Source: a virus
DNA length: 64,000 bases
Reading direction: 5' to 3' (one strand)
IMG/VR virus record: IMGVR_UViG_3300031992_000044
In this document: positions 12,069 through 62,870 of the stretch, one piece after another
Position numbering within the stretch: the first letter of the stretch is position 1
Layout: each line of letters opens with the position of its first letter
Translations under genes and position numbers: made by a program
The notes under the pieces: generated by a model
Told to the model about the DNA's origin: nothing
Databases searched by the model: none
The model's input: only the letters and a program-made list of their open reading frames with translations

Positions 12069-12117
12069 TTTGATAACAGTTTAGAGGGTTTGACATATTT
12101 TTGGGAAAATACATTTG

Positions 12118-12188
12118 TTGGGTCACACGGATTCGAACCATGACTAAGGGAACCAAAATCCCTTGTGCCGCCATTACACCATAACCCA
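12118..12188 (-). tRNA. tRNA-Gln (anticodon TTG)
   Basis: TGGGTTA TG GTGT AATGGCG GCAC A AGGGA TTTTGGT TCCCT TAGT CATGG TTCGAAT CCGTG TGACCCA A. Clean cloverleaf with a U1-A72 start, as in bacterial tRNA-Gln. Confidence 0.85.
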
Positions 12189-12988: not shown

Positions 12989-13582
12989 TTAGTTTTCTTC
13001 TATTACAGTATGTACACCAACAACGCCAAGTTCGCACTCCAGAAATGCTTTTCCAGTTGCATCAGGAAAACGCACCGTTTTGTGAGTTTTTCCATCTATG
13101 TTGACATTAACATTCACAGGATTGTTGACCGGTACAGCAACACGAGCTACGCTCGGGCCCGACTTCCCCAGGGATCCCTCGAGATCCGCTCCACCCTTGT
13201 TATTACATACATGATCATAACATTCCTGTAGACGCTTTACAACCCAGTTGTACTCTTTCTCACGCTGTGACTTTTCCATCAGTTCGCGTCCAAGCCCTTT
13301 TTGTAGGGCTTCCTTATTACCTCCTGCAGAGAGGTCCACCAATGCATCCCATACAGCCGAAACGAATGCATGGAATGTTAGTGGGAATTGACATTTGATA
13401 AGGCGATTCCACCACCAATACCTGGTTTCACCAAGCACTACGATACCAGAATCATGTACCTTATATGTCACATAGGGTCTACCCTCCTCTCCCGCAGACA
13501 TTACTTTATTACGAATCGTCTCGTTGAGCATCAATCGCTCAATGTTCAACTTCGAATCCGGTGTGAGGAGTTTCTTCTTCAT
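12989..13582 (-). CDS. hypothetical protein (197 aa)
   Basis: Intact ORF, 2 nt from the upstream gene. TAA stop. Confidence 0.5.
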   Translation of the reverse strand: MKKKLLTPDSKLNIERLMLNETIRNKVMSAGEEGRPYVTYKVHDSGIVVLGETRYWWWNRLIKCQFPLTFHAFVSAVWDALVDLSAGGNKEALQKGLGRELMEKSQREKEYNWVVKRLQECYDHVCNNKGGADLEGSLGKSGPSVARVAVPVNNPVNVNVNIDGKTHKTVRFPDATGKAFLECELGVVGVHTVIEEN

Positions 13583-26672: not shown

Positions 26673-27110
26673 AGGTAGGTAGTTACACGGGGAGAGGTAA
26701 AAAAACACGAGCCTTGAGTCCTTTTCAGAGTACGCCCTACATAACCACTGTTATGATTGTAACTACCTAATTGGTGAGACTGTTTATAGGATCTGGCAGG
26801 GTAGGCATTTCCCCTCGATTCTATCCTATGCACGGTACAGTCTCTTAAACCTCTTTAGTAAAACGTCCTATCTAGTTGAGTTAGATATCATACCCCAACT
26901 ATGCACCACCCTCCTGCTAATATCGCCTGTAGCGAATCCCTCGGACGTATTTGTTGCTGTGAAAAGTATACCCTGTCTCACGACAGAGTATACATGTAAT
27001 GAACACTTTCATTTAAATAACTTAAATAAACATTAAAAGTACTATGAAAATAAACCTTTAACACATTATTAATTTATCAATTAAGAAATGTCACACGCTT
27101 CACAGCGTTG

Positions 27111-27185
27111 TGTGGGAGAATGGATTCCAACCACTACCTACAGATGCAGAATCTGTCGCTCTGATGGTTATTAAGCTACTCCCAC
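27111..27185 (-). tRNA. tRNA-Gln (anticodon CTG), unusual D/T loops
   Basis: GTGGGAG TA GCTT AATAACCATCA GAGC G ACAGA TTCTGCA TCTGT AGGT AGTGG TTGGAAT CCATT CTCCCAC A. All four stems pair. The D-loop has CC instead of GG, and the T-loop has G at position 56. Confidence 0.65.
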
Positions 27186-36976: not shown

Positions 36977-37387
36977 ATGGCAAAAACATTACGTGTAATT
37001 TCTGATTTTTTGGACATGAATCCTGGTGATACGTTTGAATACGATAACGATACCAAGATGTATGTCGCAGAGCGAAACGAGGAATTTCATCGTACGGATG
37101 ATTCTGATAGTGAACTCCGCTCGATTTATAGTTCTAAGTTCGCTATTTCTGAAGGATATGCCAGAGAGTTGATTCAGGACGGTATTCTTGAGGACGCCAT
37201 TAACGATTCAAAAAGTTTCGTTAACGTATTCGACGAGATTGATAATCTTACTACCAGATATGAGAGTGAGCTTAAGAATCTCGATGAAGATATGGCTCAG
37301 TTCCCAGAGTGCATGAAGGTTGAGCGTACAACAGTACTTAACAATCTTCTTTCTGTACTTGATCACCTCAAAGGACTTAAGAAGTAA
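36977..37387 (+). CDS. hypothetical acidic protein (136 aa)
   Basis: Intact ORF, first gene of the plus arm. Confidence 0.55.
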   Translation: MAKTLRVISDFLDMNPGDTFEYDNDTKMYVAERNEEFHRTDDSDSELRSIYSSKFAISEGYARELIQDGILEDAINDSKSFVNVFDEIDNLTTRYESELKNLDEDMAQFPECMKVERTTVLNNLLSVLDHLKGLKK

Positions 37388-37390
37388 AAT

Positions 37391-37804
37391 ATGGGAGAAG
37401 AAGAAAAATTAATAGACCAATCGCCGCTTGCTGAGAGTGTAGCACAGAACATCAAATACGATTTTCTTGACTATTTCCTGGTAAAGCCGCTGGATCCGGT
37501 CAAAGTGAAGAAAGAATTTACAAAACCGGTCGCAACTGGTACACCCGCAAAAGATGCAAATGGAGTTGAAGCACAAGACTTTGACAACGTTGAGACCGAG
37601 GTTAAAGAAGTTGATTCTGATTATCGTAGAGGAATTGTATTGAAACGTCCTCTTTACTACAACGGAAGTGATGTTATTGGCACATCGCAAGAAATAAAAG
37701 TAGGCGATGTTGTTATATTTAGAGATCCTGCCGGACTTCGCTTTGACTTACTTAAAGATAGTCGTTTGCTTCGTTTATACGACATACTTGGTGTAGAAGC
37801 ATGA
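37391..37804 (+). CDS. hypothetical protein (137 aa; weak GroES-like C-terminal pattern)
   Basis: Intact ORF. KVGDVVIF...YDILGV recalls co-chaperonin motifs, but this is weak. Confidence 0.5.
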   Translation: MGEEEKLIDQSPLAESVAQNIKYDFLDYFLVKPLDPVKVKKEFTKPVATGTPAKDANGVEAQDFDNVETEVKEVDSDYRRGIVLKRPLYYNGSDVIGTSQEIKVGDVVIFRDPAGLRFDLLKDSRLLRLYDILGVEA

Positions 37805-38016
37805 TCGACATCGATAAAGTAATTAGAGAAGTCGCCAAACGTTTAAATGTAGACAAAGATATAGTTGATACAGTGTGCAAACACGCGTTTAAAGAAACAG
37901 TAGAAACTATGAAGTCTGATGATGATTGTAGAGATATACTATTCAATCAATTATTTAAGTTTAAACTGAAGCGTAGATACAAAGAAGATAAAACATACAA
38001 ATACAGTTCAAAATGA
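37801..38016 (+). CDS. hypothetical protein (71 aa; weak HU/IHF-like N-terminal pattern)
   Basis: 4-nt overlaps with both neighbours. Confidence 0.45.
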   Translation: MIDIDKVIREVAKRLNVDKDIVDTVCKHAFKETVETMKSDDDCRDILFNQLFKFKLKRRYKEDKTYKYSSK

Positions 38017-38477
38017 AGACTTTATATTTAACACAGAGCTCAGAGAACATCGTTGTTGATCCAGAGACTGACTTTGTTGGCAAGCTCAACAGTGAGGATC
38101 GTTATTCAATTCGCTCAGTATACTACATGGAAGAACCCATGCATATTGTATATCAGTGCGGTGAAGTGAAGGAAGAGCTTGATGCCCGTAAGGGCGACAT
38201 TGTACTGGTGTTTTATAGCAATACTTATAACAAGTATACTATTGATACTATACGTACAAAACAGTGGGCTGCTAATATCCGTAACGAGCACGCCATGCGT
38301 CAGAAGGAGAAGGAAGAGTGGGCTGCTAAGAAAGCTAGCTGTGATTGTGATACATGCTGTGAGACATGTTCATGTGGTGCAAATTTAGCAGAAATTCCTG
38401 TGGTTAACGCTGCTCCTGAAAAGGAGAACATTGCCAAAAAGATTAAGAAGGCGTTAAAGAAAGTAACTAAGAAATGA
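38013..38477 (+). CDS. hypothetical protein (154 aa)
   Basis: Intact ORF with a C-terminal Cys cluster CDCDTCCETCSC. Confidence 0.5.
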   Translation: MKTLYLTQSSENIVVDPETDFVGKLNSEDRYSIRSVYYMEEPMHIVYQCGEVKEELDARKGDIVLVFYSNTYNKYTIDTIRTKQWAANIRNEHAMRQKEKEEWAAKKASCDCDTCCETCSCGANLAEIPVVNAAPEKENIAKKIKKALKKVTKK

Positions 38478-38836
38478 TAATCATGAAGACAAAGAATACA
38501 AAAAATACTAAGAAAGTAACAAAGAAGCCTGACTTTGTAGTAGATTGGACAAACATTGAGACATATCTTGATGTTCCATATGAGACAGCTCAAGCAAAAG
38601 TACGTGCGGGTCTTCCTATTTCACAGGAAGAGGCTGACGTAATTGAGAAGATGGGCTTTATGACTGCTGCCGATATCGTCGATGCTTGTGTTGCTGAAGC
38701 AGATAAGCATACTACTGTTATCGAAGACGATGAGCTCGCTGAGAAAATGGTAAAGATGATTAAGAAGCATATTGCCAAGAAACAGCCTTGGTATAAGCGC
38801 TTCTGGCGTTGGATTACTTTCCGTAAGAATAAGTGA
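38474..38836 (+). CDS. hypothetical protein (120 aa)
   Basis: Intact ORF, 4-nt overlap with the upstream gene. Confidence 0.5.
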   Translation: MIIMKTKNTKNTKKVTKKPDFVVDWTNIETYLDVPYETAQAKVRAGLPISQEEADVIEKMGFMTAADIVDACVAEADKHTTVIEDDELAEKMVKMIKKHIAKKQPWYKRFWRWITFRKNK

Positions 38837-39140
38837 TATAAGTGGCGCTTTGTGAAGGCGAAAGCTGGAGAGCGTCCAATCACTAATATACAGGTTAAGA
38901 CTAGTCATGTGCTCTCCTAATACATAAGGGATCGTAAACGAGCTGGGCGAAATCGGTAAGTAGGGGTCCTGTAAAAACCCCGAAGTCAATACAGGTTACA
39001 GGGTCCTGAAATTCCCTGTGAAGAGTTTGAACACATGTGAAAGATTTGAACGAATCAATCGAACTAAAAGAAAAATAAGAGAGAAATAATGTGAGACTTA
39101 CGTTTAGACCTTGCGAGAGAGCGTTACTCTCGGTAAGTCC

Positions 39141-39215
39141 TGCTCCATGGTGTAGCGGTAGCACGGGAGGCTCTAACCCTCCAGGTCCGGGTTCGACTCG
39201 ATGGTGGGGCGACCA
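39141..39215 (+). tRNA. amber suppressor tRNA (anticodon CTA), Gln-like architecture, CCA encoded
   Basis: TGCTCCA TG GTGT AGCGGTA GCAC G GGAGG CTCTAAC CCTCC ... TGGGGCG A CCA. Anticodon CTA at 39173-39175. 7-bp acceptor (2 G-U pairs). The D-arm matches the phage tRNA-Gln(TTG). The T-arm (CCGGG TTCGACT CGATG) pairs badly. Confidence 0.75.
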
Positions 39216-39237
39216 ATACACACTTTATATACACATT

Positions 39238-39792
39238 ATGACGATTAAATTTAAAAGACTTTCAGAAAATGCGATCGCACCTGTAAAAGCACATAGCACA
39301 GATGCTGGATTTGATTTGACTTGCACTGACGTTACAACAGAGATTAACGAGAACGGTCAAGTTGTTATAGTATATCACACAGGTCTGTCACTCGAAATAC
39401 CAGAAGGATATTTTGGAGCACTTGTTTCAAGATCTTCTATTGCAAAGAAGCCATTGTTGCTGACAAATGCATTTGGCGTCGTTGACTCTGGTTTTCGTGG
39501 AGAAGTTATTGGTAAATTTAAAGTTACCACAGATTCTGTACCTAGTGTATATAAACCAGGTGAACGATTTGCGCAACTTTTGATCCTTCCTGTACCAGAT
39601 GTACAGTTCGAGGAATCAGAAACACTTAGTGAAACAGATCGTGGCGAAGGCAGCTACGGATCTACAGATGAACAGACATCAAGCGCACCATCGGCTACTC
39701 AGAGTCTTCCGGAAACAGAAGGCGAGCCTATAAACTCTGAGCCCGCAACAGACGGCAGCGGCGACGCAGTAAACAGCGTTGAGGAAGCATAA
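39238..39792 (+). CDS. dut: dUTPase with acidic/Ser-rich C-terminal extension
   Basis: ORF 39091..39792 trimmed to ATG 39238 because the upstream part overlies the tRNA. Motifs AGFDL, GVVDSGFRGE, RFAQL. Confidence 0.85.
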   Translation: MTIKFKRLSENAIAPVKAHSTDAGFDLTCTDVTTEINENGQVVIVYHTGLSLEIPEGYFGALVSRSSIAKKPLLLTNAFGVVDSGFRGEVIGKFKVTTDSVPSVYKPGERFAQLLILPVPDVQFEESETLSETDRGEGSYGSTDEQTSSAPSATQSLPETEGEPINSEPATDGSGDAVNSVEEA

Positions 39793-39970
39793 TAATTACG
39801 TAATAAAAGCTTCATGGGGTGGCGTACATCGGATGGCAAAACCTCACGAGGTTGATTTAATCAACTGATACGGGCTACATTGGTAGTCAAGTTAATAGGG
39901 ACTCTTTAGAGGGCCCCTATTGGCGTATATACATTATTCTCAAATTATTTCATTAATTCTCTTTATTTTT

Positions 39971-40852
39971 ATGGAAAACTCTAAAATTTTTATGTTCCCT
40001 GAGAACGGGACAAAGAGCTCTATCGATCCTACTCTGCTTGCTCTGATGAACAACAATGGTGGTTTCGGTGGTAATAACTGGATATGGATTCTCTTCCTCT
40101 GGCTCATCTGGGGAGGTTATGGAATGAATGGTTTTGGCGGCATGGGAGGCTTCGGAGGTAATGGCTACTTCGCTAACCAGCTTGCTAATAGCGAAGGTAG
40201 AGATCTTCTGCTGCAGGCTATAAATGGTCGTGCAGATGCTCTCGGACAGCTTGCTAGTATTACTAATAGTAATGTAGAACAAGTATAGGCCGCTGTCAAC
40301 ACTTTGAATACCAGCATCCAGAATGTAGGCTCTCAGGTTGGTATGTCTAGCTTACAGGTAACCAACGCAATTCAGAGTGGTAATGCTTCTTTAAGCCACC
40401 AACTCTGTGAGTGTTGCTGCGAGAATCGTCTGCTGACAACTCAGCAAGGTTATGAGAATCGCATCTAGACCATTGAGCAGACCAATCAGCTTGGTTCTCA
40501 GGCCGACCGCAATACACGGTCAATAACAGACGCTATTGCGAATCTCCAGACCAACATGACCCGTGAGTTCTGTGATATTCGTGAGCGTGAAATGCAAAGT
40601 AAGATTGACACACAGAGTGATATTATCACTCAACTGCGTGGTCAGCTGGATAATGATCGTCAGACAGCACAGCTGTTTAACGCTATTAATCCTCTGCAGG
40701 CTAAGGTTAATGAGATTGCTAACAAGCAGCCCAACACTGTGCCTGTTGTATGGCCTAACTTAACCGCAGTTAACAACACTCCTTACGCAGCTGGAGCTTT
40801 ATATGGCTTTGGTTGGAATAATGGTTGGGGTTCTAACAGCTTTTGGAATTGA
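39971..40852 (+). CDS. Gly-rich membrane / coiled-coil protein, 2 in-frame TAG codons
   Basis: ORFs 39920..40288 and 40556..40852 share a frame and are bridged through TAG 40286-88 and 40466-68. N-terminus GGFGGNNWIWILFLWLIWGGYG. TGA stop. Confidence 0.65.
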
Positions 40853-40871
40853 TTGAGAAAGGAGGTAGACT

Positions 40872-41228
40872 ATGTTTGGTACTACTAATTATCCTTTTAA
40901 CTTTGCCAATCGCCGTGGTATACCTATGATTGAGAGCAGTGGCGTTACAGCTACAACGGAGAACGTTACTATTGCCCTCCCTAATAGAGTATTCAGATGG
41001 CTTAATGACAAAGGGGTAATCCTTTTTAGGCTTTGCCAAGTAATTCCAGAAGCATCAGTAGATCTTCCTATAGTATTTACATCTAATGATTTTACACAGC
41101 CTCTCACCCTTGCTGGTGGCGATCCTGCTACAGGTGCAAATGTTATAGGTCCTGGTGTATACCTGATCTACTATGATAAAGATGCTAACTTAATGCAGCT
41201 CCTTACTATGGCTGCTAGTTCTAACTAA
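40872..41228 (+). CDS. hypothetical protein (118 aa)
   Basis: Intact ORF. TAA stop. Confidence 0.5.
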   Translation: MFGTTNYPFNFANRRGIPMIESSGVTATTENVTIALPNRVFRWLNDKGVILFRLCQVIPEASVDLPIVFTSNDFTQPLTLAGGDPATGANVIGPGVYLIYYDKDANLMQLLTMAASSN

Positions 41229-41240
41229 TATTAATTAACT

Positions 41241-41774
41241 ATGTTTTCAGCTTTACGTCAAGGAGCTCCCCTTTATATATTAAATAAGGTGGAGAAACCC
41301 GAGCTAAAAATCGGGTATGTTGAAAGTGTGACGCAGCCGCGTCCTAGATACGCCACTTATAATCCTACTGTTAGCTTTGGTACTAATATGGAATAGATAG
41401 TAGATGTTGTCGTAAAAGTAGGCACAGATAAACTAGAATATTCTGGTGTACCAGCTAATGCATCTATTCATGAGTATAACAAGATAGTAATCAGTGAGAG
41501 TAGAGAAGCTATGATCTCTGAAGTCGATGGTATGCTCTAGAGTAGTAAGAACGTCTTAGATAACGTAGATTATCATCAAGATATTATAAAATCGTGTGAG
41601 GATATTCTCAAATAGCTTAACCCTACTTACGCAAAAGAGCAAGAGAGGGATAGTGCTATAGAAGATCTAACAGCACAGGTAAATAAAATATAGACTGAGT
41701 TTGGATCTATTAAAGGTACTCTTTCAAAGATAGAAGGGCTCCTGACTAGAACTGAGAACGTCCAAACAGTATAA
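41241..41774 (+). CDS. hypothetical protein visible only with TAG as sense (4 in-frame TAG)
   Basis: Hand-translated from ATG 41241. 177 codons, with TAG (first at 41394-96) as the only in-frame stop until TAA 41772-74. Fills an otherwise empty 530-nt gap. Confidence 0.6.
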
Positions 41775-41776
41775 TT

Positions 41777-42049
41777 ATGGTGATGATTGAATTTAAAGAA
41801 GCAGCCGTTGATAAAGTATTCAACCTGCTTGAGGAGTCGTTTGAGCACAACAAGAATCAAAAGATGATTCTATGTGAGCTTTATGATGTTCTTGAAGATG
41901 CTATGAAAGATCATGGCGATGAAGACAAGATATCAAAAGGTATCATGGGTCTTCGTGAATCTAGAAGCGGTTACCGCTCTTCTATGCATGGTGGCTATAA
42001 ACGAGGAATGCGCGATGACTATCGTGAGGATAATCGTTATGCTTATTGA
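41777..42049 (+). CDS. hypothetical protein (90 aa)
   Basis: Intact ORF. TGA stop. Confidence 0.5.
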   Translation: MVMIEFKEAAVDKVFNLLEESFEHNKNQKMILCELYDVLEDAMKDHGDEDKISKGIMGLRESRSGYRSSMHGGYKRGMRDDYREDNRYAY

Positions 42050-42124
42050 TCGAAGATAATAACAGTGGGGGTCAGGGGATACTTGATCCCCATTTGTTTT
42101 TGTATAACTTAAATATTTATTATT

Positions 42125-42544
42125 ATGCATAAGACAGATTTGACCCAGTTTGACATCAAACCGGAAGCAATGGTTAATTATCTTCGATATAACGGTCCTC
42201 ATTTCAATAAGAAGCTATTACAGTTTGCTACTAGTAAGATGACTAAGAAAGGAATCAATGGCAAAGAAACAGCCATAGTTCCTTATACTATAGAACAAGT
42301 TGATAATATCATTAGAATAAACAATATCAACTTAGAATATAATCAGCTTTACGACTACGTATTTGTAGCTAACATGTGTAAAGCAGATTACTTAGGCTCT
42401 AGTATAACAGATGAAATGCATCTTGCTAAGTATATCAAAGATGTAATAGACGATGTTGATGGTTATGACGGTATCGTGTTTAATCGTTGGTATGCGGATA
42501 TGTGCCGAAAAGGTATTGTTATTAACTGGGAAGAAATGATATGA
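42125..42544 (+). CDS. hypothetical protein (139 aa)
   Basis: Intact ORF. TGA stop overlaps the next ATG. Confidence 0.5.
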   Translation: MHKTDLTQFDIKPEAMVNYLRYNGPHFNKKLLQFATSKMTKKGINGKETAIVPYTIEQVDNIIRINNINLEYNQLYDYVFVANMCKADYLGSSITDEMHLAKYIKDVIDDVDGYDGIVFNRWYADMCRKGIVINWEEMI

Positions 42545-42945
42545 CCAGCTAGTACATCAAGATAGGCAAGTACTGGAGAGTGCTTGTACTATATAATGCA
42601 GACTTCAACGATCTACCTGAGATAGAGGATTCTCTAGTACAGTTAGATTGTTCAGAAGAAGATATTGACGCTATTGCAAAAGTATTACAAAAGCGTGATA
42701 TAGGTTTTACATACAGTAACAGTGATTATAAAATGAGTATTGTATGTATTTCAGAGTCTACTTCTGCTGAAGAGTTTGTAAATACTGCAGCACACGAAGC
42801 TAAACATGTGCAGTCACATATGTGCGAATATTATGGTATACCGGAAGACAGTGAAGAAGCTGCCTATATCATAGGGCACATAGTGTCAGAGATGTACAAA
42901 ATGGTCAGCAAAGTAATTAAACACTATGTTCGATATCTAGGGTGA
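42541..42945 (+). CDS. small HExxH metallopeptidase-like protein, 1 in-frame TAG
   Basis: ATG 42541 (ATGA-type overlap), TAG 42550-52, then ORF 42580..42945 in the same frame. Motif AAHEAKHVQSH. Confidence 0.55.
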
Positions 42946-43444
42946 TAAAATTCGCCTATCTACCGACGAACTTGCAATCCCACCTTTTAGGGAGCATTAT
43001 AATAATGCTAAGGATAAAGCAATTGCGTTGAAAGAAATCGAATACATTATTTGGCTACACAAATGGAACAGCCCGTATGAAGCTTACCCAGCAGATAAAC
43101 GGGCTGCTATTGTAGCCAAAGATGTATTTAAAGATGATAAATATGTACCTACTGCAGAAGTAAAAGAACTTGCTAGACGCTTCATAGAGTTCCAAGAAAC
43201 ACCTGGTACAAGATTGTTAACAGCGTCATAGACTGCAGCAGAGGGGCTTATAGCTGCCCTAAATGACTACTCGTAGGGTAATATGGATATAGATACTGCT
43301 ATTAAAGTAACACGTATCTTAAAAGATGTTGGTAATATTGTTAAGTCTCTAGATATAGCTATGAAACAAGCTAAAGCCGAGTAGTTGGAGACTGGTAAAG
43401 TTAAAGGTGGAGGTATAATAGGCCTCTACGAAATGGTTAAATAA
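42926..43444 (+). CDS. hypothetical protein, 4 in-frame TAG codons
   Basis: ATG 42926. TAG at 42938-40, 43229-31 and two more. Same frame as ORF 43028..43231. TAA at 43442-44. Confidence 0.5.
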
Positions 43445-45077: not shown

Positions 45078-45084
45078 TTAAACT

Positions 45085-47832
45085 ATGGCAGTATTAAGAT
45101 ATTTTCATCAAGACCCCAGACAAACATCTGTACAAGAGTCATCAGTAATAGATAAACAAGGTACTGTATTAACACAGAAGTTAACTACTATAAATCAATC
45201 TATAACTAACAATACACAAGTTTTAGAAGATAAGTAGAATAGTGTACCAGGTAAATCTCTTTCTACTAATGATTTTACGGATGAATATAAGAACAAACTT
45301 AGAGGAATTGAAGAAGGAGCTGAGGTTAATGTACAATCTGACTGGGGCGAAGATGACAATACTGCAGATAGTTACATTAAGAATAAGCCTACATCACTAC
45401 CAGCTTCAGATGTATATGATTGGGCTAAACAACCAAACAAACCGTCTTATAACTTAGATGAGGTTCCGGATGGTAATATAAGAAAGCTTAGTAATTATAT
45501 ACCATTAGCCCAAAAAGGTATATATGGCGGTGTAGCTACATTGGGAGCTAATGATGGTAAAGTGCCAGAATCACAGCTTCCCAGTTATGTAGATGATGTA
45601 TTAGAATATACAAATAATAGTCAATTCCCTGTTATAGGAGAAAGCGGTAAGATATATGTAAACACTACTACTAATCTTACTTATAGGTGGACTGGTACGT
45701 AGTATACAGAGATAAGTCCGTCTATAGCCTTGGGGGAAACATCATCTACAGCTTATGCTGGAGATAAAGGTAAAGCTCTTGCGGATAGTTTATCTTCTTT
45801 GACAGGTATAGTAAACGATACGCAAGATTATCAAGATACATTAGATTGGAACACTAGAGTAGCTATAGCTAAAATAAATGGTACAGAGATAACAGCTAAG
45901 TTGCCGTCAAATCCCGACACATGGAGGCCTATTAGTGATTCTATCAATACTGTTAGTTCTACAATATCTGCATCACTTACTGCAGTAAAGGCTGCATATG
46001 ACTTAGCTGCAAGTAAGACATCGAATACTGGTACAGTAACGTCAGTAGGATTAACTGTACCGACAGGATTATCTGTATCAGGTAGTCCAGTAACTACATC
46101 TGGCACATTAGCTATTACATACGCTAGCGGATATTCTATACCTACTACAGCTAAATAGGATGAGTGGGATGCTAAGCAGAATGCTATATCAGATCTATCT
46201 ACTATACGTACCAATGCCAGTAATGGTAATACGGCATACGGTTGGGGCAATCATGCTAATGCTGGGTATTAGATGGCTATATCTGATTTGGCCACTATTA
46301 GAGACAGGGCCGATGAGGGTCATGTTGCTTATGGGTGGGGAAACCATGCTGAGGCTGGATATGTTACGTCATCCGGTGTGACATCTATAAAAATAAAAGC
46401 CACTTCCCCAATAGTTAGTAGCAGTTCTTCTGCCATAACTACAACAGGAACAAGATATATAGGTATAGCAGACGCATACGGAGATATAAAAAACCCATAT
46501 GGTGCCAAAACGGCAAATACTATACTTGCTGGTCCGACTACAGGATCTGCTGCAGTTCCAACATTTAGAGAATTAGAACAATCCGATATACCAACTTTAG
46601 ATTGGAGTAAGATAAATGCTACGGTATCAACCACAACAGTAGGATCCGCTTCGGCTAGTACAAATATATCTGCTGACGACATTACGGCATGGGATCCTGG
46701 AGCTACACCGACACTTGGAACCGCAATACCAGCAGATGATATAACTGCATGGGACGCCGGAAGTACTCCAACATTAGGAACAGCAATAAGCGCGGATGAT
46801 ATTACAGCATGGTCTGCAGGATCACTGCCTACTTTAGGGACAGCAATATCTGCAGACGACATTACTGCTTGGAGTGCTGGAACGCTACCAACATTAGGCA
46901 CCGCGATACCAGCTGACGACATAACAGATTGGACAACAAATGTACCTACGGAAGTTGTTCCAAATACAGTTGTTATAGGCGGAAGTACTACTAGTATACC
47001 AAATATATCTAAGAAGACTGTTGTAACAAGCGTAACAAAGAAAACAGTCGTTACTGGCGGTAGTACTACAGATGTGCCTAATATTAGTAAAAAGACAGTA
47101 GTTACCGGAGGTAGCACAACTGATGTACCTAATATATCTAAGAAGACTGTTGTTACCGGTGGAAGTACAACAGATGTTCCCAATATATCTAAAAAGACCG
47201 TAATAACAAGTGTATCGTTATCTGGTGGCATACTTACTATAAACACTGGTGATAGTGTAACAGTTGGTACAGCTATAAAGGCATATACCACTCTGAATAC
47301 TGGCGACAGTGTTACAGTCGGCACACCTATAAAAGCTTATACTAGTCTTACTACTGGAGATTCTGTAACGGTGGGAGATCCTATAAAAGCGTATACAAGT
47401 CTAACAACAGGCGATAGTGTCACAGTATCAACGGGCGATAGTGTAACTGTCGGAGCCGCTATAAAAGCGTACACGTCTTTAACCACAGGTCCTGCCGCAA
47501 CAGTTACTGCTGGCACAGCAGCATCTCTTGATTATAGTGCCAAGTCTATACCAAACATTACTGGTGTTGGTACACTACCGTCGTTGTCGTATACTTCGCG
47601 TAGTATACCAAATATTACTGGTGTTGGTACTCTCCCATCACTGTCTTATACATCTAGAAGTATACCTAATGTAACAGACGTAGGTACTGCCCCATCTCTT
47701 ACTTATACAGCTAAATCTATACCTAATGTAACTAGTGTGGGATCTACCCCAACACTAACTTACGCATCTCGTTCTATACCAAATATATCAGTAACAAATA
47801 AAACAGTAGTCACAGGAATAACTACACCATAA
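45085..47832 (+). CDS. tail fibre protein 1 (about 915 codons), 4 in-frame TAG codons
   Basis: One frame from ATG 45085 through TAG 45235-37, 45700-02, 46156-58 and 46270-72 into ORF 46273..47832. Contains the SDW..D..A..YIKNKP fibre motif and four families of peptide repeats. Confidence 0.75.
46666..47800 (+). repeat. four blocks of in-frame tandem peptide repeats inside fibre 1
   Basis: ISADDITAW.AG..PTLGTA x5 (54 nt). GGSTTDVPNISKKTVVT x4 (51 nt). TGDSVTVGTAIKAYTSL x5. LPSLSYTSRSIPNITGVGT x5. Copies differ mostly at synonymous positions. Confidence 0.85.
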
Positions 47833-47842
47833 AGAAGATAAT

Positions 47843-50800
47843 ATGTACGTAGGAAAAGTAAAATATGGAAATAATACATGGCCAGTCGGTTCTACACTAT
47901 ATGGCACATGTAATACTGCAGCCGATACGGTAGAAAAAACCGTAACGTTGGCAGACTTTGATACACTTCTCGAAGGTGTAACTATTCATGTTAAATTTAC
48001 ATATAGCAACACTGCAAGCAACCCGACGCTTAATGTAAACAGCACAGGAGCGTACGCAATAAAAAGATACGGAACAAAAGCCCCAGGTACCAGTTCCAAT
48101 AGTTCGTGGAACGCTGGATCTGTTGTAAGTTTTACATATGATGGTACATACTGGCAATAGAACGACTGGTTAAACAATAACACTACTTATACGTTTGATG
48201 GAACTTATGACGCAAGTACTAATAAGGCTGCTACAGTAAACACTGTTACTAATGCAATCAATGCTCTTGATGGAGGTACTATAGGTACTGGCGGTAGTGG
48301 CAAAACCATCACCTCTCTTAGTCAGACTAATGGTAATGTGTCTGCAACTTTCGGTGATATTTCAATCACGAAATCCCAAGTGTCAGACTTTCCGTCTTTG
48401 GCAACTGTAGCAACCTCAGGTTCGTATAATGACTTGAGCAACAAGCCTACAATTCCTTCTGCCGCAAACAACGGTACTTTCTCTGTCAAGACAAAGGTTG
48501 GCTCTAATGATGCTGTCACAGCAGCTGATTTTACTGCTAACCAGTCGAGTGCAGACGATATTACATTCATTCAAGGAAGTAACGTTACACTCACTACGGA
48601 TACTACAAATAGAACTGTTACCATTGCTGCAAAGGATACTACATATACTTTCGATGGTACCTACAACTCGTCTACAAATAAGGCTGCCACAGTATCTACG
48701 GTTACAAATGCCATAGCAACCCTTGACGGTACAGTCACAGGTAGTGCTGGATCAGGAAAAACCATTACTGCATTCTCACAGACAGACGGAAAGGTTTCTG
48801 CTACATTTGGCGACATTTCCATTACCAAGTCGCAGGTATCTGACTTCCCCACTATTCCTACGGTTAACAATGCTAAGTTCAGTGTGAAGGGCGATGGCAC
48901 AGAAGTTGCATCCACTACGGCTAATGCTTCATCTGCTTCTTCTGTTGACATTGTGGCAGGAAGCAATGTTACTGTGACACCGGATGCTACAAACAAAAAA
49001 ATAACTATTGCTGCTAAAGATACAACATATTCAACAGCCACTACATCAGCAGCCGGTCTTATGTCAGCAGATGACAAGACAAAGCTGAATGGCATAGCAG
49101 CAGGTGCAGATGTCAATGTTCAGTCAGACTGGAATGCAACTTCTGGTGATGCCTTCATTAAGAACAAGCCAACTATACCAGACAGCTTCCAGTGGTTCGG
49201 CACATCTTCCACAGCAGCAGACGTTGTGCAAAAAGAAGTCTCAATACCAAGTATAACCAGCTTGAAAACAGGTCAGATTATAGTAGTAAAGCCTACTGTG
49301 ACATCTACTGTTGCAAACAGCACCTTGAAACTGAATGACTTTGATGCCTATCCGATGAGATACAACAACGCTGCTATTACTACAGGTACTGACAGCATTG
49401 TATGGAGTGCAAATATTCCATCGTTATTTGTGTTTGACGGTTCATATTGGGAATTTCTTGGGCATGGATTAGATTCAAACACCACATATTCTGCAATGTC
49501 TGTAGCTGAAGGCACTGCTGGAACAAAAACTTCTGCAAGGACTATGAGGGCTGACTATCTGAAGCAGATAATTCAGGCATTAGCACCTCAATCTGACTGG
49601 AATGCAACAAGTGGAGATGCAGTGATTCTGAACAAACCAACCATCCCGACAGTGAACAACGGAAAGTTTTCCATAAAGGGTGCTGGTACAGAGGTGGTAT
49701 CTACAACAGCTAATGCCTCTTCTGATTCTTCTGTTGATATTGTGGCAGGAAGTAATGTAACGATTACACCAGATGCTACCAATAAGAAAATCACCATAGC
49801 ATCTACGGATACCAATACTACCTATTCTGCAGGTACTGGGCTTAGCTTATCTGGCACAACATTTAGTGTAAAAACCGGTTATACTACTAGTGGAAACAAT
49901 AGAGCTGTACAAGCTGACTCAAATGGTAATTTGTATGTAACACAAAAAGACGACAATGCCACATATACATTTACCGATAACAATCCGACGTTAGCTTGGG
50001 GTACTAAGTCTAAAGTAGCTACTGTTGGTGGTACCGACATTCATGTAACAATGCCAGCTAATCCGAATACTAACACTACTTATACTATAGCCACCGGCGA
50101 TAGTGATGGACAAATAAAAGTTACTCCATCTAGCGGTAGTGCTTATAACGTAAGTGTTAAAGGATTAGGTTCTAGGGCTTATGATAGCACTAGTTATTTA
50201 CCTTTAGCTGGAGGTACTTTGACTGGCGGGCTGAACTTTAAGTTTGGGCATGACCTTACACAAACAAATAACGGTGTAGAATCAGTCCAATACTACGGCA
50301 TTAGGATGTACGATAAGAACAATTATTACTCCGCACAATTATTAAACCAAGTACAAACAGACGGTACAAATGCCTTAAACTTTAACCTTAGAAATAGGAA
50401 TGGCAGTACAGAGTACGATAAAAGCCTGATGATATATCTTACTAAAGCCGGTGTCATCTCGGCATCCCTTGGCGGTGCATTTACAGCAAATTCTTTTATT
50501 AAATCAGGTGGTACATCTTCACAATTCCTGAAAGCGGATGGTAGTGTAGATAGCAATTCGTATTTGACAAGCATAACCAAAACAATGGTAACTAATGCTC
50601 TTGGTTATACCCCACCGACTACAGATACTAATACATGGCGTGGAATAACTGATAGTTACTCCGGTACAGATTCATCTATTTCTTTATCTCAAAAAGGCGG
50701 CAATGCTTTATACAATGCACTTTTAAACGGGTATGCTAGTTCTGCAGGATATGCAGATTCAGCAAGTTATGCTTCATCTATACCTTCAAGAACAATATGG

Positions 50801-51805
50801 GGGCAATCATTCAATGGAACTGCAAATGTAAATGGAACGTTCTATTTTACTAATGGAGATGCAACTATGAAAATATATGGTGCGCCATCTACTGTCGAGT
50901 CTTACGGTAACGAAAGAGTTGCAATACAAACATCATTTGATATGCAAGATCCAGAAACATCTTCTTATCCAACGAATTATCCTACCCGTGCGGCACTACT
51001 TTTGCAACCAAGAGGAGGCTACGTGGGCATAGGTACTACATCTCCATCCACAAGGATGCATGTTGTAGGCAGAGTGACGTGTGAATATAGTAGTGCATAT
51101 TCTGGTTCATTTAGTGCTATTCGTGATGTCTATGAAGGATGTTTTGGAATAAATAGTTCCGGTTATACACTTCTTACTACAAATAAAGTTGGTGATTCTA
51201 GTGCAAGAGTTAGAATATCATTAAGTCCTCATACTATTACAAACAGCAGAATTATTTTGAATGATAATGTAGAAATGTCTAATGGTAGTGGTATATATTA
51301 GGCATCATCTTATAGTTCCAGTAGTGATCCTTTTTATATACAAAACCACGATTTGTATGATAACGATGTTTCAATAGGACGCCCTGGAGATTCAGGAAAA
51401 CCTTGGGTTGGTATAGGTATACGGAAACCGTCTTATAAACTGCATGTAAATGGAGCATGCGGAGCTACATCGTTTCCTAATACATCGGATATAAGATTGA
51501 AAGATATATAGTCAGAGTGGTTACCTAAACTGGAAGATATAGCAAACGCTCCATCATTCTTGTTTAAATGGAATAATATAAAGGATGATACTGTTCATTT
51601 AGGTAGTAGTGCGCAATATTGGGAAGAAAAAGCTCCAAATGTAGTAACAGAAGCAAATGATGAAATAAAGACAAAATCGTTGCAGTATGATGTATTGGGA
51701 ACTGTAAACAGTATAGCCATAGCAAAAGAAGTTGTAAGTTTAAAAGAAGAAATAAAGCTTCTGCAGGCTTAGATTGCAGAATTAAAGTAGCTACTAAATA
51801 ATTAA
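47843..51805 (+). CDS. tail fibre protein 2 (about 1320 codons) with C-terminal S74-type intramolecular chaperone, 5 in-frame TAG codons
   Basis: ORFs 47843.., 48338.. and 51560.. share one frame. TAG at 48158-60, 51299-301, 51509-11, 51770-72 and 51788-90. C-terminus TSDIRLKDI(TAG)SEW...FKWNN resembles the SDxRxK chaperone motif. TAA at 51803-05. Confidence 0.75.
48184..49830 (+). repeat. two pairs of large internal duplications in fibre 2
   Basis: About 210 nt: 48184-48394 versus 48641-48850 (TYTFDGTY..SATFGDISITKSQVSDFP). About 180 nt: 48854-49030 versus 49645-49830 (PTVNN.KFS.KG.GTEV.STTANASS..SVDIVAGSNVT.TPDATNKKITIA). Confidence 0.8.
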
Positions 51806-55476: not shown

Positions 55477-57966
55477 ATGGTTAGAGTAGACGATAATTTA
55501 TATAACGTATCATTTCCCCAATAGAAACTACCACTAAAAAAGAAAGACGAATAGTGGCAGCATGATTGTGTAAACTGGATAATCGGCGAGGGGAACGTTG
55601 CGTCTGGAGGTATGAATAAGACGCGATTCGGAGAGATACAAACCTACTATAATCTTTATAATTCTATATTTGATGAAAAAGACTTCAAGCGTATTACGAA
55701 CCCATTTAAGGTAGAAGATGGGTTCCCCGCTACTCCTCAAGATTTCAATATAATTAGGCCTAAGGTAGACCTCCTTATAGGTGAAGAGACAAAGAGGCCA
55801 ATGAACTTCAGGGTGGTGAGAACGTCGTAGGAAGCCGCTTCAGAGCTTATGGACAGAGAGAAGGAGATGCTCATCCAATATATTATGGCATCTATTACTT
55901 CTCAGATGGGTCCTGAAGAAGCACAATAGTTTTAGCAATAGTTACAGTCTGGCGAGATAATGCCTCCTGAAGCTATAGCTAAATATATGTAGAAAGATTA
56001 TAAAGATGTTATAGAAAACACAGCATATCATACCCTCACATACTTACGAGAAAAACTAAACTTGGACAATGAGTTTATCAAAGGCTGGAAAGATGCTCTT
56101 ATTGCAGGTACTGAATTCTATTATGTTGGTGTAATGAACGATGAGCCGTACATGGAGAGAGTGAACCCAGAATACTTCGATTATGATCATAGTCCTGATC
56201 TAGAGTTTGTAGAAGATGGTTCGTGGTGCTGTCGTAGAATGAGGATGCCTGTGGCTGAGATATATGACCGTTATTATAATAAGCTTAGCGAGAAAGACTT
56301 GAATAAGCTTAACGAGATGATGGGTAGCAGACACGCTAATGATCTTGGTGATAGACCTCCTGTAGATAACTTCGGTGGTGGTATACAATTCCATATCTAT
56401 GATAATCCTACTATGGATTAGAAGACTAGATATGCTATAAATGTATGGCACTGCTGTTGGAAATCTTTCAAAAAGATATACTATGTTACATACTTCGATG
56501 AAGCCGGTCAGGCACAAGTAGAAATTATGGACGAGTCTTATAAGAAGACAGGACAGGAGATATCAGTTGAACCGGACTGGATTATAGAAGTTTGGGAAGG
56601 ATACCGTGCAGGATCTGATCTTTATTTTGGTATTCAGCCTATTGAGTACCAGCATGTATCAATTGATAACCCTAATTCTCAAAAGCTTCCGTATTGCGGA
56701 TGTGTCTACTCTAATACCAACAGTAGGCCACGTTCTCTTGTAAGTATACTTAAGCCTCTACAGTATATGTATATTGTATTGTGGTATAGACTTGAGTTAG
56801 CTATAGCCAGAGATAAGGGAAAGGTAGTAAACATGGATATTACATAGATTCCTAAATCTATGAATATCACTCCTGATAGATGGATGCACTACTTGTCTTC
56901 TGTAGGCGTAAACTTTATTAATCCTTATGAAGAAGGTTGGAACATCGCAGGTAGAGAAGGCGGAAAGCCTGCTACGTTTAATTAGATCACTGCTCTCGAT
57001 CTTACTATGTCGAACGTAATCGCTGAATATATTCAGCTGATGGATAAGATTGAGCAATTGGCTGGTACTATATCAGGTATTACAGAACAGCGTGAAGGCG
57101 CTATTAGTTCTAATGAACTTGTAGGTAATGTAGAACGTAGTGTTGTACAGTCTTCTCATATTACTGAGCCTTTGTTCTGGGCTCACAACCAATGTAAGCG
57201 TCATGTACTTAACATGTTGTTAAATACAGCTAAAGGGGCATGGTAGCAGACAGGTAAGAAGAAGCTTAGTTATATCTTCGATAATGGAGAACGTGCTTTT
57301 GTTGATATCCAAGATAAATTCTACTATGAAGATATGGATGTGTTTGTAAGCGACACTTCTAAAGACATGGAAAACATTTAGAAGTTGCAGCAACTTATTC
57401 AGCCGGCTATGCAGAATGGTGCTAGCTTGCTTGAAGCAGCTGAGGTACTTACCAACGATAACTTCAACATCATCAAGCAGAAGCTTCTAGAGATGCAGCA
57501 ACGTCAAGAACAGCAAATGCAACAGCAACAAGAAGCTGAGCAACAACAAGCTATACAACTGCAACAAATGCAGAATGAAGCTCGTGAACAAGAACTTATG
57601 CTTGAAGAGGCTAAGATGGAGCTTGAGCGTTACAAGATCGATGCTGACAATTAGACTAAGATTGCGGTTGCTGAGATATCTACTTATCGTGGTACTGAGG
57701 AGAAAGATATCAATCAGAACAATATCCCAGATCCGCAGGAAATGTACGATATTGCTATTCAGCAGTAGAAGCTGCAATCCGATGCTTATACGAAGCGTTA
57801 CGAAGCAAATCAGAAGAAGAATATAGAAGACAAGAAGATTGAGCTCGAACGTGAGAAGATGAAGCACGAGATGGCACTACAGAAGCAGAAGGATGACGCG
57901 GCTCTTGAGCGTGAGAAGGTTAAAGGGCGCTACGCTCTTCGTAACAAAACATCGGGAGAGCGATGA
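55477..57966 (+). CDS. portal protein (about 829 codons), about 14 in-frame TAG codons
   Basis: ORF pieces 55612.., 56062.., 56527.., 57007.. and 57385.. all lie in frame 1, immediately after terL. Gln-rich coiled-coil C-terminus. TGA at 57964-66. The portal call rests on position and size. Confidence 0.65.
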
Positions 57967-61346: not shown

Positions 61347-62870
61347 ATGAATAATACTTTACTTAACAATCTCCAGCTGTACCGTGGACGTCGTTTCTCG
61401 GACCTGGTAGATGAAAACATGATTTCTAACGCCCTGCTGACTAGACCTCATGAGGTGTCTGGTCTGCTTTCACTGGTATTTGGTACAAAAGACGATGGTG
61501 TTTCTACTACTATCGATCTGCTCACCGGTGGTCTTGGCAAGACAATGATTATTGATAACCGCGAGTTTGAGTGGGCTGTCCAGGTTGACAGCGAGCACGC
61601 TATTAACATTCGTTGGGCAAAGTGGAACGGTAAGGAGATTACCTCCGCTAACTATATTTCTGAGACTCCTGGTCTGAATGGTACTCCTATCTACCTCGCT
61701 CTTGAAGAGCGTTGGTTCGGTCCTGGTGCAATTCTGTCATTTGACGATTACAAGTTCCAGGTTCGTGTAAACGGTGTTCCTTATCAGGACGGTAGCGCTT
61801 GGGTATATGAGGTATATGTTGTTGATGGAGCACAGGCTGCTTACATCCCCGGTGAGTTCCTGCTTCCTGGTCGTCAGGTAAGCCGTTTGGGTTCTGCTTA
61901 CGAGGAGTACAGTGATGAGGCAGATATCATCAACTACCAGACTCCGTTTAAGATGCGTGGTCATCTGCAGACTCTCCGTCTGACTTATGATATTACTGGT
62001 GACGCATATTCAACGGTTCTGGCTATTGCTCTGCAGGATCCCGAGACTGGTAAGAAGAGCTATCTCTGGGCCGATTATCAGTACTGGCTCGCACTCCGTG
62101 AGTGGAAGAAGCGTGAGGAGTATCAGCTGTTGTTCTCTAAGAGCAACCGTCTGGCTGATGGTACTTATCTTAATAAAGGGACAAACGGCAGACCCGCACC
62201 TACGATGAGTGGTTTGTTCGAGCAGATTAGCCCGGCTAACATTCGTTACTATCATCACCTGACAGCTGAGCTGTTCGAGGATTATCTCTTCGACCTCTGC
62301 TACAATATCCTTGGTACCAATGAGCGTCGTTTCGTTGCTCTGACTGGTGAGATGGGTATTCGTGAGTTCGACCGTATCCTGAAGGAGAAGGTTGCTAGCT
62401 TCAATATGTGTGAGAATATCTTCGTTACCGGTAGCGGTCAGAACCTGACTCTCGGTGGTCAGTTCACTACCTACAACATGACAAACGGTATCACGCTGTC
62501 TCTGAAGCGTTGTCCTTTGTTCGATAACATGGAGATGTTCCGTCAGCTCCATCCGCTGACTGGTAAACCCCTGATGTCTTATACGTTCCTGTTCGTCAAT
62601 ATCAGCAACTTCGACGGTCAGGCTAACGTTGTTAAGGTTTGCCGCAAGGGTCGTGAGTTTGTTCAGTGGTACACCGGCGGTTCTGTTTCGCCTCAGGGTT
62701 ATGCAAACAGCATTAACACTCTGCGTTCTAACAGCCGTGATGGTTACCAGGTTCACTTCCTCGGTGAGGAGGGTATTATGGTTCGTAACCCGCTGAACTG
62801 TGGTATTCTGTACTGCGACGCTGAAGATACCGAAATCTGCAACGACGGCGGTATTAATGTCGGTGCGTAA
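61347..62870 (+). CDS. major capsid protein (507 aa), no TAG codon
   Basis: Long uninterrupted ORF in the head module. Visibly different, G/C-ending codon usage (CTG, CGT, GGT, TTC), as expected for a very highly expressed gene. Followed by a strong hairpin. Function is assigned by position, size and expression signature. Confidence 0.65.
   Translation: MNNTLLNNLQLYRGRRFSDLVDENMISNALLTRPHEVSGLLSLVFGTKDDGVSTTIDLLTGGLGKTMIIDNREFEWAVQVDSEHAINIRWAKWNGKEITSANYISETPGLNGTPIYLALEERWFGPGAILSFDDYKFQVRVNGVPYQDGSAWVYEVYVVDGAQAAYIPGEFLLPGRQVSRLGSAYEEYSDEADIINYQTPFKMRGHLQTLRLTYDITGDAYSTVLAIALQDPETGKKSYLWADYQYWLALREWKKREEYQLLFSKSNRLADGTYLNKGTNGRPAPTMSGLFEQISPANIRYYHHLTAELFEDYLFDLCYNILGTNERRFVALTGEMGIREFDRILKEKVASFNMCENIFVTGSGQNLTLGGQFTTYNMTNGITLSLKRCPLFDNMEMFRQLHPLTGKPLMSYTFLFVNISNFDGQANVVKVCRKGREFVQWYTGGSVSPQGYANSINTLRSNSRDGYQVHFLGEEGIMVRNPLNCGILYCDAEDTEICNDGGINVGA

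Follow-up and report, generated by a model that had tools for sequence, protein, structure and literature searches.

A tRNA gene with a CTA anticodon was characterized in the IMG/VR virus record IMGVR_UViG_3300031992_000044, which was analyzed as one stretch of 64,000 nucleotides (nt), hereafter the window. Comparison with related phages indicated that this gene, at positions 39141-39215 of the plus strand, very probably encodes a functional phage amber-suppressor tRNA of glutamine type, tRNA(CUA), folded as a 7/5 cloverleaf with a 1x2 internal loop in the T-stem. The parts of the gene were located as follows.

39141-39215, plus strand: suppressor tRNA(CUA), 75 nt, CCA encoded (ARAGORN; Rfam tRNA, 31.7 bits; covariation in 32 distinct homologues)
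39141-39147/39205-39211, plus strand: acceptor stem, 7 base pairs (bp), TGCTCCA/TGGGGCG, with two G-U pairs
39150-39164, plus strand: D-arm
39166-39182, plus strand: anticodon arm
39173-39175, plus strand: anticodon CTA (reads UAG), in the loop CTCTAAC
39183-39186, plus strand: variable loop, 4 nt
39187-39204, plus strand: T-arm, with T-loop TTCGACT at 39192-39198
39212, plus strand: discriminator A, followed by CCA at 39213-39215 (ACCA encoded at 39212-39215)

A preliminary description of this DNA, made from the letters alone, had proposed a plus-strand tRNA with anticodon CTA, a 7-bp acceptor stem and an encoded CCA end. ARAGORN placed a 75-nt tRNA at exactly 39141-39215 and reported the same anticodon, and the stem and the CCA end were both found in the sequence. 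The label Pyl given by ARAGORN was due simply to the CTA anticodon. As that description had also stated, U8-G9 and the D-stem GTGT/GCAC of tRNA(CUA) were identical to those of the phage's own tRNA-Gln(UUG), which was located on the minus strand at 12117-12188. U1 and A73 were also common to the two tRNAs, as were the lengths of the D-loop (7 nt) and the variable loop (4 nt). The D-stem of tRNA(CUA) consisted of 4 bp, and U8 and A14 were both present for the usual tertiary pair. The Rfam tRNA model (RF00005) scored the gene at 31.7 bits against a gathering score of 29, in a local alignment only.

Relatives of the gene were collected by pattern scans of viral and metagenome collections, with the anticodon arm, T-arm and D-arm as patterns and also with combinations in which the T-stem was left free. 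A clade of 136 instances of tRNA(CUA) with the same six-base 3' strand of the T-stem was recovered, including 32 distinct sequences. Among these 32, the acceptor stem was paired at 99.6% and the D and anticodon stems at 100%, and changes on both sides of a pair were detected in the acceptor stem at 2-70, 3-69, 4-68, 5-67 and 7-65. In a 14-sequence set, all five pairs of the anticodon stem showed compensatory changes. The anticodon loop was CUCUAAC or CUCUAAA across the clade, with 7 nt, U33 and a purine at 37. The T-arm was nearly frozen and more conserved than the stems, while the acceptor and anticodon stems covaried freely; the T-stems of suppressors with a normal T-arm in other phages, by contrast, were varied. 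This difference points to a sequence-level constraint on the T-arm motif. The irregularity of the T-arm noticed in the preliminary description was conserved throughout the clade when the gene was aligned to the suppressors of related phages.

The T-arm had been read as CCGGG TTCGACT CGATG with only two of five pairs, and a non-standard elbow had been suggested. The letters and the count in a 5+7+5 register were correct, but the 3' strand of the T-stem contained six bases (CGATGG, 39199-39204), one more than normal, and four pairs formed when the register was shifted (register B).

39187-39204, 39188-39203, 39189-39202 (G-U) and 39191-39199, plus strand: pairs of register B, as judged by pairing in 32 sequences
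39190, plus strand: G52, opposite the two purines G39200 and A39201 in the 1x2 internal loop of register B

Register B (49-65, 50-64, 51-63 as G-U and 53-61, with G52 against two purines) was paired at 100% in the 32 distinct sequences, compared with 37-38% across the relatives for the register read at first, which is also the one drawn by ARAGORN, and 82.5% for the 5-nt-loop register of Rfam. On this alignment, the count of two pairs in five is an artefact of forcing the 5+7+5 register. A double change from C-G to U-A was detected in three distinct sequences in register B (L003, L008 and L290). No register gave a regular 5-bp T-stem; the best one had four pairs, with G52 facing G62 and A or G. 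The extra purine was A in 28 and G in four of the 32 sequences and was switched in at least three backgrounds, and the six-base strand occurred in the clade as CGATGG, CGGTGG and CGATAG.

The origin of this arrangement could be followed in a sister CUA tRNA with a normal T-arm, CTGGG TTCGAAT CCTAG. Compared with it, the stem of the odd tRNA of L003 (CTGGG TTCGATT C-GA-TAG) differed solely by the change of C62 to GA, and the same three outer pairs were kept. Since the sister keeps the outer pairs, including the G51-U63 wobble, these three pairs are ancestral and C62 alone was replaced, by GA or GG. In this way, the 52-62 pair of an otherwise normal 7/5 cloverleaf was shown comparatively to be replaced by a 1x2 internal loop. 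The elbow nucleotides T54, C56, G57, A58 and C61, the G53-C61 pair and G18 G19 of the D-loop were invariant in the clade, and T55 was changed to C in one sequence only (L208). With the outer T-stem pairs, G53-C61, the 7-base T-loop and the D-loop GG all intact, a standard L-shape elbow can form. Of the suggested non-standard elbow, the T-arm stem was indeed non-standard; the elbow itself, judged by nucleotides that are invariant or nearly so, is canonical, and the irregularity is located in the stem beneath it.

The L003 locus (7260-7410, minus strand) and L008 lie on contigs of about 175 kb and contain tandem CUA tRNAs, of which one has the odd T-stem and the other a normal T-arm (CTCAG/CTGAG). 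No TAG recoding was observed in the flanking 7-8 kb of these tandem genes. L003 also carried a Hatchet ribozyme (81.8 bits, 13016-13099) and a transfer-messenger RNA (tmRNA).

The distribution of the odd T-arm was evaluated further. A megablast search of positions 37000-43000 against deposited phage genomes returned no match, none being close at the DNA level. A pattern with the outer T-stem free gave no new loci in viral contigs, and one further sequence in metagenomes, L290, with a U50/A64 pair. In a scan of 185,579 bacterial and archaeal species, each represented by one genome, the motif was found in a tRNA context on two contigs only. Both were short, phage-like contigs of 31-32% GC in gut metagenome-assembled genomes (mis-binned), and their tRNA was identical to the phage tRNA. 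A cellular origin of the odd T-arm was rejected, the other 55 of 57 genome hits being chance matches in high-GC coding DNA. The scan of cellular genomes therefore argues that the trait is phage-specific, and by this comparison the T-stem irregularity is fixed in a large clade of crAss-like suppressors. With the Rfam tRNA model, the clade scored 29.1-35.1 bits, within 0-6 bits of the threshold, and L208 was missed; the normal sister scored 43.2 bits and the tandem partner in L003 56.7 bits. The clade stands at the edge of detection by the covariance model because of the fixed extra purine in its T-stem.

The scans also returned CUA tRNAs of other kinds. Those of L158, L162, L166, L179, L196 and L200 combined the same Gln-like D-arm with a class II-like variable arm about 20 nt long, and may be suppressors of a different amino-acid identity. 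Beside CUA tRNAs with a normal T-arm, ARAGORN called tRNAs with an undetermined anticodon in L004, L014, L019 and L027 ('aa'; 'taaa' in L019), and in L035 a similar 'aa' call followed an odd-T-arm CUA tRNA by about 600 nt. These calls suggest unusual anticodon loops.

The tRNA heads a block of genes in which TAG is read through. The genes concerned were assigned as follows.

39238-39792, plus strand: dUTPase gene (dut), no in-frame TAG (Pfam PF00692, E = 1.6e-18)
39896-64000, plus strand: TAG-recoded late module, with tail-like proteins; 57 in-frame TAGs among 287 Gln-type codons
53431-55473, plus strand: terminase-like gene, in the recoded late module
55477-57966, plus strand: portal-like gene, in the recoded late module
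61347-62870, plus strand: crAss major capsid gene, in the recoded late module

The phage is crAss-like, the open reading frame (ORF) at 61347-62870 matching the Crassvirus major capsid family with E = 7.8e-207, and the minus-strand half of the window encodes a primase, a DnaB helicase and other replication proteins. The gap between the tRNA and the ATG of dut (39238) was 22 nt. The five plus-strand ORFs in 36977-39792, dut included, contained no in-frame TAG, and TAG-bearing ORFs were found only after 39896; the tRNA thus lies ahead of all plus-strand TAG genes, as had been described. On the plus strand from 39215 to 64000, coverage by ORFs of at least 150 amino acids increased from 53% under the standard code to 91% when TAG was read through. 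Read-through of TGA or TAA gave no gain of coverage downstream of the tRNA, and the minus-strand module barely changed with TAG read-through. The share of TAG among Gln-type codons was 57/287 (about 20%) in the late module, compared with 0/258 in the early module, where TAG is still used as a stop by 7 of 36 ORFs of at least 120 amino acids. In nearly all relatives with enough flanking sequence, tRNA(CUA) headed a same-strand block in which ORF coverage jumped with TAG read-through, for example from 0.34 to 0.95-1.00. Read-through coverage, codon usage and relatives thus agree with the headline of the preliminary description, a Gln-type amber-suppressor tRNA with a non-standard T-arm at the head of a TAG-recoded module. 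Two large late proteins at 45082-51805 (plus strand), of about 917 and 1328 amino acids with TAG read through, contained many tandem peptide repeats, such as GTAI(S/P)ADDITAW and KKTVVTGGSTTDVPNIS, and are probably tail-fibre-like.

The amino acid inserted at UAG was evaluated at the codon level by comparison with two relatives, whose terminase and portal genes encode proteins of 77-88% identity. At sites with TAG in only one genome of a pair, the partner carried CAA or CAG in 35 of 52 cases, and the remaining 17 codons were scattered over many amino acids, none of them occurring more than three times. UAG as glutamine is therefore supported. Terminase homologues carried Q at 83% of the window's TAG positions, but TAG = Q had already been used in calling these database proteins. 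The protein-level count is therefore partly circular, and it was downgraded in favor of the codon-level comparison. Under table 11, the DNA of the public terminase homologues (P0001-P0120; loci L209-L212) does not give their protein sequences. Intein domains (PF14528/PF14890) were observed in the homologues P0089, P0101 and P0118. In L209, a reverse transcriptase gene (RVT_1) preceded the terminase by about 2 kb, and in L211 a GIY-YIG/NUMOD1 ORF abutted dut.

The body of the tRNA was also Gln-like across the clade, with U1 in a weak 1-72 pair in 31/32 sequences, G2-C71 in 27/32, and G10 and U35 present. Its A73 is that of the phage's own tRNA-Gln(UUG), and the D-arm UG-GUGUARYGGUAGCAC was mainly a signature of tRNA-Gln(UUG) in viral contigs. 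Pfam searches of the 27 window ORFs revealed no aminoacyl-tRNA synthetase, elongation factor or release factor, and since no synthetase is among them, charging by the glutaminyl-tRNA synthetase (GlnRS) of the host is taken as the working model.

Several observations weigh against a Gln-type suppressor folded in register B. The single-sequence fold of tRNA(CUA) was no stabler than shuffled sequences (z = 0.59), and its minimum-free-energy (MFE) structure was not a cloverleaf. In nearest-neighbour calculations, energies of -17.7 kcal/mol were obtained for register B, -21.5 for the 5-nt-loop alternative and -25.7 for the MFE structure, so that the cloverleaf was not favoured. As the MFE structure is not a cloverleaf and no better than shuffles, thermodynamics cannot decide the register. 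Besides homology, register B has the support of one kind of compensatory change, which may go back to a single event, and in the alternative register C the four inner pairs can always form as well. G3-C70 and G73, which are identity elements of E. coli GlnRS, are replaced by C3-G70 and A73, and the 3-70 pair is variable in the clade; the identity set of the host may differ. Finally, the genome has a length of roughly 100 kb, of which about 36 kb are not covered by the window and leave room for a second suppressor. Another contig, IMGVR_UViG_3300028888_000078, agrees with the window in this tRNA and in the sequence directly flanking it. Considering the marginal Rfam support and a fold no better than shuffles, the case for a real tRNA at 39141-39215 rests on the comparative evidence, which is strong. 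The same evidence bears on how else the T-arm could be folded. It is unlikely that the tRNA functions with 4-5 bp of CGGG/CUCG, a 5-nt loop UUCGA and an AUGG linker to the acceptor stem, which would create a truly non-canonical elbow. This fold is the one aligned by Rfam and is the stablest of the three cloverleaves, its four inner pairs can form in all 32 sequences, and the recurrent A-to-G at column 61 would turn its C-A mismatch into C-G. However, it showed no double compensatory change, its fifth pair is C-A in 28/32, and the G-to-A change that always accompanies C50-to-U is left unexplained. It would also destroy a T-loop with invariant T54, C56, R57, A58 and C61, to which the equally invariant G18 G19 of the D-loop are added, and it runs contrary to the sister tRNA, in which the outer CYG/YRG pairs proved ancestral. 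The 8/4-type architecture drawn by ARAGORN, in which the leftover G pairs with U8 as an eighth pair, is much harder to accept. U8 and this G are invariant and can always pair, and 8/4 tRNAs with a bulged T-stem base do exist (PMC5389517), but only two real pairs would be left in the T-stem (38% paired), C49-G65 offers the same G an invariant Watson-Crick alternative, and U8/A14 are available for their usual tertiary pair. Moreover, the known 8/4 tRNAs have their bulge on the 5' strand (A51a) together with tRNA-Sec-like long D-stems and variable arms, which are absent here (PMC5389517).

The preliminary description had also raised an assembly error in the T-arm, or an impaired copy with the real suppressor elsewhere. 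Either is barely conceivable. A low covariance-model score and a part of the genome beyond the window would fit such a reading, as would L003 and L008, in which a second CTA tRNA with a normal T-arm stands right beside the odd one. Nevertheless, an assembly error is excluded because many independent contigs carry the same six-base 3' strand, in 136 instances from many samples and 32 distinct sequences. Decay is excluded because the stems are maintained (99.6-100% paired, with many compensatory changes in acceptor and anticodon stems), the T-arm is even more conserved than they are, and the genomic context is kept: the gene holds its position heading recoded modules, and no second CTA tRNA was found in most of the relatives' loci scanned by ARAGORN. 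Charging with an amino acid other than glutamine is similarly far from probable. A73 and C3-G70 depart from the E. coli GlnRS identity set, and ARAGORN gave the label Pyl, on the anticodon alone; yet CAA or CAG stands opposite TAG in 35/52 cases with the rest scattered, and the phage's own tRNA-Gln(UUG) has A73 as well. For such phages, TAG-to-Gln alone has been reported (bioRxiv 10.1101/2021.08.26.457843).

For the amber suppressor with the 1x2 T-stem loop, the following course would be expected. The tRNA would be transcribed from the start of the plus-strand (late) block, probably processed out of a structured leader, charged with glutamine by the host synthetase, and would then decode UAG as glutamine in competition with release factor 1. 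Such decoding would let the structural and packaging genes be translated, in which TAG makes up about 20% of the Gln-type codons. A scan for sigma-70 promoters and terminators around the tRNA revealed nothing above shuffle expectation, by a method unsuited to Bacteroidota or phage RNA polymerases. The leader was located directly upstream of the gene.

39095-39139, plus strand: structured 5' leader, acceptor/T-arm-minihelix-like, ending 1 nt before tRNA(CUA)

It consisted of a 7-bp outer helix (39095-39101/39133-39139), a 12-nt linker GTTTAGACCTTG containing TAGAC, and a hairpin at 39114-39132 with 6 bp and the loop AGCGTTA. Both the outer helix and the inner hairpin had similar counterparts in the MFE fold, with a slightly shifted register. 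In relatives, the loop was kept and the stems covaried, and in L009, L011, L015 and L016 a minihelix with a true TTCGATT T-loop occupied the place of the leader. The leader motif GTTTAGACYTT was not enriched within the window as a repeated signal. The leader may serve in processing, or may be what is left of a tRNA.

In 15 viral contigs, found by a scan with an invariant core stretch, the CUA tRNA was split in the anticodon loop by an insert of about 1 kb (loci L029, L030, L033, L034, L036, L038 and L355-L363, of which L029 and L038 are truncated). The window tRNA contained no intron. Insertion was always after U35 (CUCU|AAC, equal to 39174|39175 of the window) and only in CUA tRNAs, including those with normal T-arms, and the last intron base was G in 14 of the 15 copies. 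ARAGORN found no tRNA at the split loci. The intron encoded a 306-amino-acid protein with an HNH domain, whose ORF ran into the core. The 3' core of about 185 nt contained 44 pairs in seven helices, 99.1% paired and 13 of them with compensatory changes, compared with 34-50% in slid controls. The order of the helices, P3, two hairpins (P4-P6), P7 with a bulged base, P3', P8 and P7', is the topology of a group I core. The Rfam model Intron_gpI gave no hit at the gathering threshold, nor any with E <= 10, whether the complete intron or just its core was searched, and inspection for P1 or an internal guide sequence revealed none that was convincing. A GGUU/AACC pairing proposed by RNAalifold was broken in 2 of 10 sequences and was dropped. 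A search of the intron core with nhmmer against 2.9 Mb of retrieved DNA returned self-hits only. Because Intron_gpI did not match and P1 was not identified, the intron was named group I-like. Group I introns are known in bacterial tRNA anticodon loops, such as those of cyanobacterial tRNA-Leu(UAA) and Azoarcus tRNA-Ile. The intron of the relatives resembles them in its anticodon-loop insertion directly after U, its terminal G and its P3/P7 core, and differs in that its host is a phage suppressor tRNA, in its HNH ORF of about 300 amino acids and in being unmatched by Intron_gpI. The intron-bearing phages also had TAG-recoded modules downstream, and therefore need splicing or a second suppressor.

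Other RNA genes were detected in the early, minus-strand part of the window.

12117-12188, minus strand: tRNA-Gln(UUG) (ARAGORN; Rfam)
27110-27185, minus strand: tRNA with anticodon CUG, called Gln by ARAGORN (ARAGORN; Rfam)

Both anticodons, TTG and CTG, were thus reported by ARAGORN, as the preliminary description had stated. The body of the CUG tRNA is unlike those of the Gln(UUG) and CUA tRNAs, and its Gln identity is uncertain. Its D-loop, AAUAACCAUCA, was without the usual GG, and its T-loop, UUGGAAU, had G at 56, so that it could contain a swapped 19-56 tertiary pair, i.e. another non-standard elbow in the same phage. A permuted (two-piece) tmRNA was observed at 23771-24151 (minus strand) among the tRNA genes of the early module, with the tag peptide GDYNIVDYTGLKEAA* according to ARAGORN and 49.4 bits for Rfam tmRNA_permuted against a threshold of 47.

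The suppression of UAG by a tRNA-Gln with a CUA anticodon is classically known from supE-type suppressors of E. coli, point mutants of a canonical tRNA which insert glutamine at UAG through the host GlnRS. The phage tRNA is similar to supE in its Gln-type body, CUA anticodon, U1 with a weak 1-72 pair, G2-C71 and G10. Unlike supE, which has a 5-bp T-stem, G73 and G3-C70, it has A73, a variable 3-70 pair and the 1x2 T-stem loop, and it is a dedicated, phage-encoded part of a code switch. In crAss-like phages, Sup-CTA tRNAs and the recoding of late genes from TAG to Gln are established. According to two surveys, a TAG suppressor is detectable in only a minority of the genomes recoded at TAG, about 40% in one of the surveys, and non-canonical tRNAs are suspected in both behind the undetected suppressors (PMC7886860; bioRxiv 10.1101/2021.08.26.457843). 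The window agrees with the crAss-like phage suppressors described there (Yutin et al. 2021, PMC7886860; Borges et al.) in its Crass_capsid domain and relatives of about 100 kb, in the use of TAG as glutamine only in late structural, packaging and lysis genes, and in a suppressor which derives from a Gln-type tRNA and precedes the recoded block, within a region of standard code. Unlike the suppressors described there, the clade of the window has a fixed extra T-stem purine and scores of 29-35 bits, with one member missed. A term search of PMC7886860 and bioRxiv 10.1101/2021.08.26.457843 found no mention of a T-arm or T-stem feature. Extra bases in T-stems are compatible with function elsewhere: 8/4 tRNA-Sec and selC* tRNA-Cys function with A51a bulging from the T-stem (Mukai et al. 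2017, PMC5389517; review PMC7609411), and some bulged-T-stem 8/4 tRNAs act as stop-codon suppressors (PMC5389517; PMC7609411). The phage tRNA shares with these an unpaired extra base inside the T-stem. Differently, the 8/4 tRNAs have a 5'-strand bulge in a tRNA-Sec-like body, and tRNA(CUA) has a 3'-strand extra base opposite G52 in a 7/5 class I Gln-like body. The 1x2 T-stem variant is apparently undescribed in the literature searched, while the kind of suppressor itself is known.

Stop-codon recoding in gut phages is thought to time the late genes, with the suppressor tRNA as the switch. The clade provides a concrete and widespread example of non-canonical suppressors near the Rfam threshold, and related intron-split copies escape ARAGORN entirely; a dedicated model could let annotation pipelines recover both the odd-T-stem and the intron-split suppressors. 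The clade also represents a natural experiment, in which a class I tRNA with a near-invariant 1x2 loop at 52-62 is apparently accepted by bacterial translation while the other stems drift. The T-stem base pairs next to 52-62 are held to set the affinity for EF-Tu. The loop may tune the handling of the tRNA by EF-Tu or the ribosome, may help it to escape host tRNA-directed enzymes, or may be a tolerated frozen accident. More tentatively, as a possibility that we would not favor at present, the extra purine is an adaptive, phage-specific signature which sets the suppressor apart from all host tRNAs and explains part of the shortfall of detected suppressors, and the code switch of intron-bearing relatives depends on self-splicing. 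If the purine is adaptive, it would tune its handling by EF-Tu or the ribosome for efficient reading of UAG, or hide the tRNA from tRNA-directed nucleases or quality control of the host; if the intron self-splices, the suppressor family would be, in some relatives, a homing site for an HNH-carrying group I-like intron.

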